Origin: a virus | Lineage: Monodnaviria > Loebvirae > Hofneiviricota > Faserviricetes > Tubulavirales > Inoviridae | Direction: 5' to 3' (one strand) | Length of the DNA stretch: 7,549 bases | IMG/VR virus record: IMGVR_UViG_2579778797_000001 | Span: 1-7,549 of that record | Part shown: positions 4,036 through 6,277 of the stretch, in pieces | How positions within the stretch are numbered: position 1 is the stretch's first letter | Layout: every line of letters starts with the position of its first letter | Translations under genes and position numbers: made by a program | The notes under the pieces: generated by a model | Seen by the model: the letters and a program-made list of their open reading frames with translations, nothing else | Database searches by the model: none | What the model was told of the DNA's origin: nothing

Positions 4036-6036
4036 TCAGGGACAGTTATTGTCACAAGTCCAAGGGTCGGCTTCGCCGCCCCCACCCGCCGCGCGGGAGC
4101 GCGTCGTGCGGTGTCGTGAAGCCGACGAAATAAACACAGATTCATAGCTGCTGCCGCTTCTGACTTCCTCTGCGCGGATTTTTTCTGCGGGGGTCATACG
4201 GCGGACAACACAGCCCATAAAACGGGTTATGACCGGAACGGGGCCAAACATGAAACCGGAAATCACCGGTGCGCAGGGTTCACCGTAACGGTTAAAACGG
4301 GGTTTACCACCTTCCTGCGGCTGAACGTAAAACGGACGAAGCAGACGTTCAGAACAGAAGAAACCGCCGTTCAGCAGGATATAGGTCCGGAAATCGCCTG
4401 CATCACAGGCCATGCGGATGGCTTCCAGTTCGGCGACCTGCTGCGGCGTGAACTGCTGCATATTGATATGATGCGCCTCAAGCGGTGCGCGGAAGCTGCG
4501 CATCTGGCGGTAAGCCGTAACGGAGGGAACGCCAAAGAACTGGAACAGGCGAAGGCGCGTTGCTTTCTGCCAGCAGGCGGCACGGCTGACGGCATCACAG
4601 AATGAACGGGCAGAATAACGGTCATTCAGGGCGGTAATACCATCCGCACTGACATCCCCCGCCATTTTGGTGATGTACTTCACGATGTAACGGAAACCAT
4701 CACCCTTTTCAGGGTCAATAGCCTCAATACGAATGCGGTGCTCTTTCGCCCCCTTTTCATCCGGCTCATCGCGCATGGCCTCTTCACGGAAAATAGCGAG
4801 CACCGTTGCGCTCTCATGGGGATTGCAGTAAATCAGGAAATTCCAGTGCGCTGTACCGTCAGCATGCGGCTCGACCGTGCGCAGACCGGGTATCTGAATA
4901 CCGGCTTTATCCAGCCTGCGGCAGACACGACGCCAGACGGTATTCAGCCATGCGTGCGAATTCTTAACGGTCGGGCAACCTGCTTCCCACCATTTTTTAT
5001 TCGGACGAGAATGCCATTTTCCGGCAACCTTAAAACTGGTCGTCGGGTGAAAACGTGACGGCGTGGTGAGCACGATGAAGTAACCGGACAGCCCCATATC
5101 TTCGGACAGTTCACAGACGGCCTTTCCACGAACGCAGAGTTCAGCAATCCGGTTTTTCGGATTCGAAACAGAGGCGTTATGCGCATCTTCCAGCGTACAG
5201 ATCAGCTCATTAAACGCATCAAAGACACCGGAGGACCGGAGATACTTTTTCACGCGTTTACTGCGGACAGCAAACAGGTCACGATGCCAGTCAGAAATAT
5301 AAGGCGCGTTGCGGTTCAGTATGCCGAGCATGCGACAGACCTCATTGACCCGCTGGTCACGGATAACCCGCAGGAAACGGGTGACAAAAGCCAAATCAGT
5401 CAGACGCTTAAGCAATCCCTCATCGCCGTAACGCTCATGATAAGTGGCATAAACGGGGGAGAAATCAAAGCCGGAGATGGCCTGAAAATAGGCCATCACA
5501 TTGAGAAGGTGATGCTCTGGTACATCACTATAAATGGCCCGAGAAACAAGGCAGTCACGAACAACCGAATCAGCCACCTCAGCAATCTGCTCATCAGTGC
5601 AGAAAAGCGAGAATTCATAAGGGTCTCCGTCCTGATTGAAGAAAGCAAAACGGTGAGCGGACTCAAGGGCCATCAGCGCATTTTTCACACCAAGCTGGTA
5701 AACCAGACGGCAGAACGCATGCGCTACGGTGAACGAAAACGAGCCAAACTGTGATACCAGTCCGGCAGCCCTGCCCCTGTCAGCGAGAGATAAATCCGTG
5801 CAGTTAATTCCGTAAATCACACGGTCAACCTGCGTGTTACGCGGCAATGCGAGCTGTGCAGATAAGGTCCCGACCTCATCACGATACTGGCGGGAAAGCG
5901 TGGAAAGGTTGCGGGGGGCAACATCGCGCTCAGTCCGAAAATGCTCGCGTTCGGACAGCGTCAGGCAGGGACGACTAAGGGCAACGGATGCCGCGTCGAT
6001 GGCGTTATACGCTGTGAGGATGGTTGATTCAGTCAT
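4036..6036 (-). CDS. Rolling-circle replication initiation protein (phiX174 gpA / P2 gpA / inovirus gII superfamily), 666 aa from ATG at 6036
   Basis: Paired-tyrosine motif [10 protein letters not shown] (nt 4666-4689) resembling phiX174 gpA YVAKYVNK. Upstream His-containing segment [18 protein letters not shown] at 6034-6036 preceded by GGAGAGGAG; the track start at 6138 is TTG and is rejected. Confidence 0.92.
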
Positions 6037-6277
6037 ACTCCTCTCCCGAAACCATATCGGAAGCCTCAACCATATCCAGATAGACAACCCACGATCCGGA
6101 AGGAACTGAAAGAGAAACAAGAACGAACTCTGGCCCAATAAAACGAAGGCAGTAATTGATCAGCTCATCAAAGGAGTCACATTTTAACCAAAGACCATCA
6201 ACACGGGCTGTACAGTAAACAGGAGCAGTCAAGTAAAAACCAAACCCAGGAAAGTAATCGTAGTAAACAATTTGCAT
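6029..6277 (-). CDS. Hypothetical protein (82 aa), first gene of the Rep operon, translationally coupled to Rep
   Basis: ATG at 6275-6277 with GAGGA upstream. Its stop TGA (6029-6031) overlaps the Rep ATG (6034-6036) in the arrangement ATGACTGA. Acidic C-terminus; no recognised motif. Confidence 0.55.

Follow-up and report, generated by a model that had tools for sequence, protein, structure and literature searches.

A conserved acidic small protein encoded immediately upstream of Rep in an Escherichia coli filamentous prophage

The small gene at the start of Rep

The DNA analyzed here, a stretch of 7,549 nucleotides (nt) held as IMG/VR record IMGVR_UViG_2579778797_000001 and referred to below as the window, is a filamentous (inovirus) prophage of Escherichia coli that adjoins a hipA/autotransporter region. 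An earlier note on this DNA had pointed to an extra open reading frame (ORF) of 82 amino acids (aa) ahead of the gene for Rep, the replication initiator. This ORF, designated ORF82, proved to be real, as evidenced by its conserved homologues; its extent and that of the other features are listed in Table 1. The plus strand at 6029–6036 reads TCAGTCAT, which corresponds to ATGACTGA on the coding (minus) strand, with the TGA of ORF82 at 6031–6029 and the ATG of Rep at 6036–6034. The ORF82 stop thus overlaps the Rep start, as reported in the earlier note, whose description of the protein was confirmed as well: 10 of the 41 residues in the N-terminal half are aromatic, the C-terminal tail is acidic, and ORF82 has a net charge of -9 and a pI of about 4. 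The assignment of Rep to the CTXphi (RstA-like) type had to be abandoned, since Rep matches PF05840 (Phage_GPA), the family of P2 gpA, at E 2.5e-48. It also matches phrog_91 (E 6.8e-128), and the Rep proteins of relatives are annotated as 'replication endonuclease'.

Table 1. Positions of ORF82, its parts and the other features of the window.
Feature	Position	Strand	Description	Basis
ORF82	6029-6277	minus	82 aa, ATG start, TGA stop; divergent PHROG 3104 member	ORF list
ORF82 stop/Rep start overlap	6029..6036	minus	ATGACTGA, 8 nt	read from sequence
ORF82 folded core	6110..6277	minus	residues 1-56	two AlphaFold2 models, one topology
ORF82 loop insertion	6212..6235	minus	eight residues, YLTAPVYC, residues 15-22	alignments; low pLDDT
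ORF82 acidic tail	6032..6079	minus	16 residues, predicted disordered	alignments; pLDDT <50
Shine-Dalgarno-like sequence for Rep	6038..6047	minus	GGGAGAGGAG, within ORF82 tail codons	
Mosaic boundary at Rep codon 2	6030..6036			megablast matches end at 6030-6033; alignment; GC step
Immunity/promoter segment	6247..6420		about 84% DNA identity with Rep_trans-type inoviruses; takes in only ORF82 codons 1-10	blastn
Rep	4036..6036	minus	666 aa, rolling-circle replication endonuclease, P2 gpA family	
Divergent basic protein	6411..6611	plus	66 aa, pI 9.4, PHROG 2503	phrog_2503, E 7.4e-27
Candidate sigma-70 promoter of the ORF82-Rep operon	6311..6339	minus	TTGTGT, 17-nt spacer, TATGTT	by eye
TCATGA/ATCATG palindromes and overlapping inverted repeats	6290-6295, 6328-6333, 6377-6382		divergent control region	
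141-aa gene	3580-4005	minus		
pIII-like gene	1589-2953	minus	Gly/Ser-rich	
Zot/pI-like gene	1-1212	minus		

The Shine-Dalgarno sequence of Rep itself, GGGAG/GGAG, is contained in the codons of the ORF82 tail; ribosomes ending on the small ORF would therefore halt on or just past the Rep start. From the geometry of the overlap, translational coupling of Rep to ORF82 is plausible, as is the fixed ORF82:Rep stoichiometry that coupled translation would bring, both of which had been proposed in the earlier note. Folding of the region around the Rep start revealed no RNA structure masking it beyond that of shuffled sequence (fold z-score -0.01), and no Rfam family matched there.

AlphaFold2 was run twice for ORF82, using alignments of 8 and 57 sequences. 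The predicted core consists of beta1 (residues 2–9), beta2 (21–26), beta3 (29–33), a helix (36–46) and beta4 (51–55), with pLDDT values of 74–91 except for a loop block at residues 11–20, which scored 56–58. The alignments showed that the YLTAPVYC insertion is specific to a subfamily of 82–84 aa and that the relatives of 63–65 aa lack the acidic tail; insertion and tail together account for the length of ORF82 in comparison with the 63–75 aa of the family. The tail contains a direct repeat, GATATGGTT, and from the alignment looks newly made, by an 18-nt duplication.

ORF82 belongs to PHROG 3104

The gene is not as unrecognized as had been thought: it is annotated by PGAP in strain TD225-C4 as the hypothetical protein WP_216334011.1, and PHROG 3104 already covers it. 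The match of ORF82 itself to phrog_3104, a family of 'unknown function', is weak (E 6e-4, residues 1–68 on profile positions 3–66 of 69), and its membership therefore rests on a chain of homologues. All 11 aligned relatives match PHROG 3104 (best E 2.2e-24), and VALGphi8 gp02 (YP_010768660.1) does so at 1.4e-42. ORF82 shares with the family the hidden Markov model match, the position ahead of Rep and the acidity; the usual PF02486 partner is replaced by a PF05840 Rep, both here and in L014–L022 (loci of relatives are cited by L numbers and protein clusters by P numbers).

The first word-indexed search with ORF82 returned only one near-identical cluster (P0001, 84 aa, 89% identity). Another inovirus located at dif, the XerCD chromosome-dimer resolution site, is that of E. 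coli RIVM_C037166, which has a homologous 63-aa ORF overlapping the Rep start; searching with this 63-aa sequence gave six more clusters. An exhaustive profile search against 1.84 billion representatives added the distant P0008, P0009 and P0011, and a profile search including a Vibrio member resulted in 85 clusters, from E. coli, Proteus, Photorhabdus, Xenorhabdus and many Vibrio species. Three long repeat proteins (P0010, P0013 and P0014), each with 8–13 separate short profile matches, were judged spurious. An apparent fusion of the small ORF with Rep, P0026, is a frameshifted element truncated by an insertion sequence (IS) and not a natural fusion. In the metagenomic locus L038 (1245–1592) the small ORF is in frame with the first Rep_trans residues and is cut by an IS630-like insertion, a degraded copy. 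When the phage collection was searched by tblastn with ORF82, noise alone was obtained, and the link to the Vibrio phages was reached only through the shorter homologues.

PHROG 3104 is centred on the pre-Rep small ORF of Vf33, Vf12, VfO3K6 (f237), VfO4K68, VALGphi6/8 and the vB_Vipa phages. The family is hence present in isolated infectious phages (Vf33, Vf12, VfO3K6/f237 and VALGphi6/8), and it is also found on pB72D, a circular 10.2-kb Citrobacter episome. This element comprises an entire inovirus genome and so suggests that an ORF-bearing phage is able to replicate. The small ORF is omitted from the classical gene tables of f237 and Vf33 (ORF1–10) and from the Vipa tables (PMC10790759). 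In a review of YpfPhi (PMC4266046), YPO2273, an RstR-like repressor gene, is followed at once by YPO2274, the Rep gene, and no ORF is listed in the interval, and the UPphi paper makes no mention of such a small ORF. A search of the literature found no functional study of the family.

Strong acidity is common to all 57 aligned members, with net charges of -5 to -13 and a maximum pI of 4.67, and several contain neither Lys nor Arg. Residues Y5, D7, W30, S35 and L39, which are invariant or nearly so across the family, are all kept in ORF82, and homologues retain the position ahead of Rep down to about 23–30% identity. The Nei-Gojobori ratio of nonsynonymous to synonymous substitution rates (dN/dS) is 0.11–0.19 among the short members and 0.39 between ORF82 and the 63-aa form. 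The exact 82-aa protein was found in 152 blocks of the assembly collection and is intact in every copy seen. Length alone would mean little, since the window holds several spurious ORFs of 80–106 aa; it is conservation that raises ORF82 above chance. On this evidence ORF82 is a genuine protein-coding gene, catalogued but with its function unassigned, and the family can be described as strongly acidic proteins of 63–84 aa with a predicted beta-beta-beta-alpha-beta core.

Profile searches and structure prediction, the routes named in the earlier note, thus yielded a family and a fold, but neither a functional label nor a confident structural relative. Neither ORF82 nor its relatives matched Pfam, NCBIfam or PADLOC; even at E <= 10, Pfam returned nothing for 11 members apart from one chance match. 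Sequence-profile searches of the PDB gave chance matches only, and Foldseek found nothing in the PDB or BFVD at E <= 0.001. A resemblance to the fold of the HicB N-terminal domain (PDB 3k6q and 1wv8) was too weak to use. The HicB families gave no sequence or profile match for the ORF82 family, and no HicA gene is adjacent, the neighbours being Rep and the 66-aa basic protein.

Genomic context of the small ORF

All loci that were read have the small ORF directly 5' of Rep, with the two genes overlapping. Conservation and synteny in related inoviruses, by which the earlier note had wished the ORF to be judged, were borne out by the 85 clusters and by this constant position in the contexts read. 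Across 12 family contexts, the window included, the overlap measures 1 nt (L004 and L005), 4 nt (L010), 8 nt (the window, L003 and L014), 10–13 nt (L009, L011, L025, L028 and L031) or 17 nt (VALGphi8). Most members have a Shine-Dalgarno-like GGAG/GGGG motif for Rep within their last conserved codons, GY(Q/R)E or LGVF; none was seen in the last small-ORF codons of L010 and L011.

The gene on the other side of the small ORF is less constant. In enterobacterial contexts the small ORF is the first gene of the operon and faces a divergent basic protein of 62–75 aa belonging to PHROG 2503; homologues of this protein occur in all such contexts and fall into at least three immunity variants. In Vibrio contexts the PHROG 2503 partner is absent and one variable gene on the same strand precedes the small ORF, which in V. 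cholerae is the second gene of the operon and still abuts Rep. Rep is therefore the only invariant neighbour.

The Vibrio members share with ORF82 the Y-Y-D, W-D and S-x-x-x-L motifs, the acidity and the overlapping pre-Rep position. They are only about 23–27% identical to ORF82, which in addition has the 8-aa insertion and the 16-aa acidic tail, and they precede a PF02486 Rep whereas ORF82 precedes one of the PF05840 (P2 gpA) type. Closer homologues, of 63–66 aa and about 49% identity, are first in their operons in enterobacteria (WP_096944698.1, E. coli RIVM_C037166; Citrobacter pB72D). These also precede Rep_trans (PF02486), which they overlap by 1–13 nt; they lack the insertion and the tail, and their GC content matches that of their own Rep. 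In L004, the divergent 66-aa gene and the control region are identical to those of the window.

Natural mosaics and a chimeric origin

In four phages, the window included, two immunity types and two ORF-Rep types were found in a two-by-two arrangement. Immunity A, with the 66-aa basic protein, is combined with a 63–65 aa ORF and a PF02486 Rep in L004 and with an 82–84 aa ORF and a PF05840 Rep in the window; immunity B, with a 70-aa basic protein, is combined with the former pair in L005 and with the latter in L014. Between pairs having the same immunity, identity is 80–96% over the divergent gene, the control region and the opening ~30 nt of the small ORF, after which the two sequences diverge. 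Between the window and L004, which differ in Rep, the identity of 80–96% accordingly extends to codon 10 of the ORF, and blastn places the A-type immunity boundary at window position 6247, which is codon 10 of ORF82. The window and L014, which differ in immunity and have the same Rep, are 30–55% identical upstream, but 73–100% identical once the ORF begins and on into Rep. The Rep_trans pair, L004 and L005, exhibited a weaker pattern of the same kind, with about 56–83% across the ORF and a drop in Rep. Since these identities follow the type of Rep, the body of the small ORF belongs to the replication module and not to the immunity module, and this counts against a role as an immunity-specific antirepressor or a Cro-like protein.

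Another boundary lies at codon 2 of Rep. Megablast matches to E. coli prophages that share the structural genes and Rep end at 6030–6033, and GC content falls from about 0.55 in Rep (0.545) to 0.43 in ORF82 and 0.36 in the divergent gene. In six of seven Rep_trans phages, small ORF and Rep agree in GC within about 0.04 (e.g., 0.42/0.43, 0.35/0.39 and 0.31/0.33), L011 being the exception with 0.29 in the small ORF and 0.40 in Rep. The mismatch in GC and the break in homology at codon 2 therefore indicate that the phage is a chimera: judging from the compared sequences, Rep_trans (PF02486) phages are the native setting of both the small ORF and the AT-rich immunity region, which were joined to a PF05840 Rep at its second codon. 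A Rep_trans phage with an ORF of the 82-aa type was not found, and every 82–84 aa member that was found precedes a gpA-type Rep.

Other features of the prophage and its relatives

The 66-aa basic protein encoded divergently from ORF82 had no match in Pfam or the PDB. A ribbon-helix-helix assignment made by eye was unsupported by either, and the protein is therefore kept only as a small basic protein and, by its position, a presumed repressor. The candidate sigma-70 promoter of the ORF82-Rep operon is conserved in L004, though the promoter scan tool did not report it. The palindromes of the control region, likewise conserved in L004, abut the candidate -35 box and the ribosome-binding site of ORF82, and probably serve the 66-aa basic protein as operators.

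Small membrane and coat genes belong to the same minus-strand series as the genes listed in Table 1. The pIII-like gene includes a long Gly/Ser repeat tract (2044–2450) which, when read in other frames or on the opposite strand, yields spurious ORFs of considerable length. Its product varies in length, from 447–451 aa in L017–L022 to 439–461 aa, by annotated coordinates, in L003, L001 and L002. Beyond the divergent gene lie two dif-like sites in inverted orientation, AGTGCGCACAATGACGTTATGTATAAAA at 6836–6863 and the reverse complement of GGTGCGCATAATGTGAC at about 6913–6931, flanking a GC-rich hairpin. Folded as single-stranded DNA (ssDNA), this region is predicted to give an extended, forked hairpin (-33.2 kcal/mol, z-score -7.4) resembling the attP that CTXphi forms from its folded ssDNA; allowing up to 3 mismatches, no copy of the canonical E. 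coli dif was present. Relative to L017 and L003, ~1.38 kb is deleted at about 7206–7216, with loss of hipB and most of hipA. What is left of hipA, its last 66 codons (7006–7206), is joined to the end of the autotransporter gene, and the junction is 100% identical to that in contig JJLO01000111.1 of GCA_000627155.1.

Tandem prophage copies at the dif locus were seen as two Rep copies in L001 (1–12706), as three places in TD225-C4 and as repeated Zot/secretin genes in L031. The accessory region next to the immunity gene of the relative L036 contains a gene (3906–4271) for a protein with a TolA C-terminal domain. As TolA is bound by inovirus pIII, this protein could act as a decoy or in superinfection exclusion. 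In L002 (10070–11035) and L037 (3507–4472), the gene for an IS110-family ('RNA-guided') transposase ends 3 nt before the Rep start, and these closely related gpA-Rep inoviruses are integrated beside hcxB/ybiB instead of at dif. The IS110-family gene has the look of an alternative module for integration, exchanged at the same codon-2 boundary.

Discussion

Three known arrangements of a small ORF and an initiator resemble that of ORF82 and Rep. In the plasmid replication leaders tap of R1 and repY of the IncB/IncI plasmids, a short upstream ORF has a stop codon that abuts or overlaps the initiator start, and translation of the initiator can depend on the leader. These leaders have 24–29 codons, their peptides are not conserved, and control is exerted through antisense RNA and RNA structure. 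The likeness lies in the stop of ORF82 overlapping the Rep start (ATGACTGA); unlike tap and repY, ORF82 has 82 aa, a family dN/dS of 0.1–0.2, a predicted fold and no predicted masking RNA structure. CopG, from the copG-repB operon of the pMV158-type plasmids, is a small basic ribbon-helix-helix repressor that binds DNA and is encoded upstream of, and co-transcribed with, an HUH initiator. ORF82 resembles it in its placement just upstream of the initiator, but is acidic, beta-rich and without a DNA-binding signature. The gene X protein of the Ff phages is an in-frame C-terminal fragment of pII, produced by internal initiation, which modulates the rolling-circle initiator and is not an enzyme. 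Like it, ORF82 would be a small protein from the Rep transcript, though one encoded by a separate and unrelated upstream gene.

Our preferred reading, to which we give about an even chance, is that ORF82 is a dispensable accessory of the replication module, made from the Rep transcript, which binds a basic partner and tunes rolling-circle initiation or the supply of ssDNA. ORF82 would be translated from the same transcript as Rep, with its termination site on the Rep start. The acidic protein would then bind a basic partner, either Rep itself or a DNA-binding protein of the phage or host, and this binding would tune initiation or ssDNA supply in an accessory and not an essential capacity. The extreme acidity of the whole family makes direct binding to DNA, origin or operator improbable and favours a basic partner; ORF82 is thus unlikely to bind DNA, and the origin-binding factor considered in the earlier note becomes improbable, given the strong acidity of every member and the lack of any Lys or Arg in several. 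Its suggestion of a Rep accessory fared better in part: the ORF body follows the type of Rep in the two-by-two mosaics and so goes with the replication module, while a required cofactor of the gpA Rep is excluded by the genome counts given below. A wider proposal, which we regard as tentative and rather less probable, is that the PHROG 3104 proteins are inovirus replication modulators of a class not described before, produced in step with the initiator and possibly mimicking nucleic acids. These would bind Rep or a conserved host single-stranded DNA-binding protein (SSB), helicase or nuclease, and would set the copy number of the replicative form or shield newly made ssDNA; the insertion and tail of the 82-aa form would have been gained for work with a non-cognate gpA Rep.

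Several observations weigh against an active role of the protein beside this Rep. Because Rep has a Shine-Dalgarno sequence of its own, it can initiate alone and coupling is not obligatory, and the C-terminal conservation (GYQE, LGVF) may in part be due to the embedded Shine-Dalgarno sequence and not to protein function. Within the 82–84 aa subfamily dN/dS is 0.4–1.15, on only 5–17 substitutions, a range compatible with relaxed constraint after the Rep swap. The co-segregation of ORF body and Rep could be simple linkage. Furthermore, the gpA Rep is present in 39 of 5,426 complete E. coli genomes and ORF82 in just one of these 39 (TD225-C4); with 38 genomes carrying this Rep and no ORF, ORF82 is not a required cofactor. 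Where the ORF is missing, a 147-bp intergenic region separates Rep from a divergent PHROG 2503 gene (L001, L035 and L036), or an IS110-family transposase gene abuts Rep (L002 and L037). Absence from close relatives had been named in the earlier note as grounds for doubting the gene, and in the complete E. coli genomes with this Rep such absence is formally what was found. It does not follow that the ORF is non-coding: as read from the compared loci, the absence is a replacement of modules at Rep codon 2 and not decay, and, taken with the wide conservation of the family, it therefore shows dispensability for the gpA Rep.

The same observations feed the reading that we regard as the strongest competitor, though an unlikely one, in which ORF82 is a passenger or leader. 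It would have arrived with the promoter-immunity segment of a Rep_trans phage and been kept only for the ribosome-binding site of Rep and the delivery of ribosomes to the Rep start, the protein being functionless with the gpA Rep. The compositional mismatch and the codon-2 boundary fit such a history, as do the sister phages that use the same Rep without the ORF, the elevated dN/dS of the 82–84 aa subfamily, the Shine-Dalgarno sequence of Rep within the tail and the seemingly recent origin of that tail from an 18-nt duplication. Yet the ORF is intact in all copies seen, with the exact sequence in the 152 collection blocks; the lineage bearing ORF and gpA Rep survived two independent immunity swaps; the near-invariant Y5, D7, W30, S35 and L39 are retained; and no RNA structure masks the Rep start. 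That ORF82 is not a gene at all but a chance open frame in the Rep leader is very improbable; in its favour are the many spurious ORFs of like length in the window and the weak PHROG score of ORF82 itself. Purifying selection and conservation across the family effectively refute it, synteny is conserved from Vibrio to E. coli and the predicted fold is consistent; non-coding status was rejected on dN/dS and the 85 homologous clusters.

Two further proposals give the protein a function other than that of our preferred reading, and we hold both to be improbable, to the same degree. One makes ORF82 a switch protein that neutralizes the divergent basic repressor in the manner of RstC or Coi, or that acts like Cro, Cox or Apl. 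In all enterobacterial contexts the ORF is indeed the first gene of a leftward operon, opposite a small basic protein, and the two are of opposite charge (pI about 4 against 9.4). The pairing is not a specific one, however: one ORF body goes with two divergently encoded basic proteins sharing only 38% identity, the Vibrio relatives lack the PHROG 2503 partner and have the ORF second, behind variable genes, and L001, L035 and L036 carry the basic protein but no small ORF. An antirepressor of the RstC/Coi type is disfavoured for want of a specific pairing with one repressor family. A switch protein or excisionase of the Cro/Cox/Apl type is disfavoured because there is no helix-turn-helix or other DNA-binding domain in a protein whose model is beta-rich and whose net charge is -9, and because the ORF body is not co-inherited with immunity. 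The earlier suggestion of a regulator, understood as an immunity or switch protein, is therefore unlikely to be right, given the two different divergent partners and the absence of the partner in Vibrio. The other proposal is a host-directed DNA mimic, an early acidic protein that would block a restriction enzyme, nuclease or uracil-DNA glycosylase as do Ocr, ArdA, Ugi and p56. Extreme acidity across the family and a promoter-proximal position agree with this, as does an accessory, non-essential status, and the occurrence of the ORF beside two unrelated Rep families and several ssDNA-binding genes fits a conserved host target. There was, however, no match in PADLOC, Pfam or NCBIfam and no similarity to characterized mimics, and the strict juxtaposition with Rep would be left unexplained.

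What is new in ORF82 is its insertion, its tail and its non-cognate Rep, the family itself being visible in the annotations of Vibrio inoviruses. This family occurs in f237 of pandemic V. parahaemolyticus, in prophages of V. cholerae and V. vulnificus and in dif-site prophages of gut E. coli, and its fixed position against Rep marks the small ORF as the one part of the replication module still without an assigned role. The chimera described here is a natural experiment, with one Rep found with and without the ORF and one ORF type found with two Rep families, which separates protein function from coupling. Should the ORF be a passenger only, it would still illustrate the precision with which inovirus modules can recombine, in this case at codon 2 of Rep. 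If the protein does modulate rolling-circle replication or shield phage DNA, it would be relevant to the tuning of chronic phage production.

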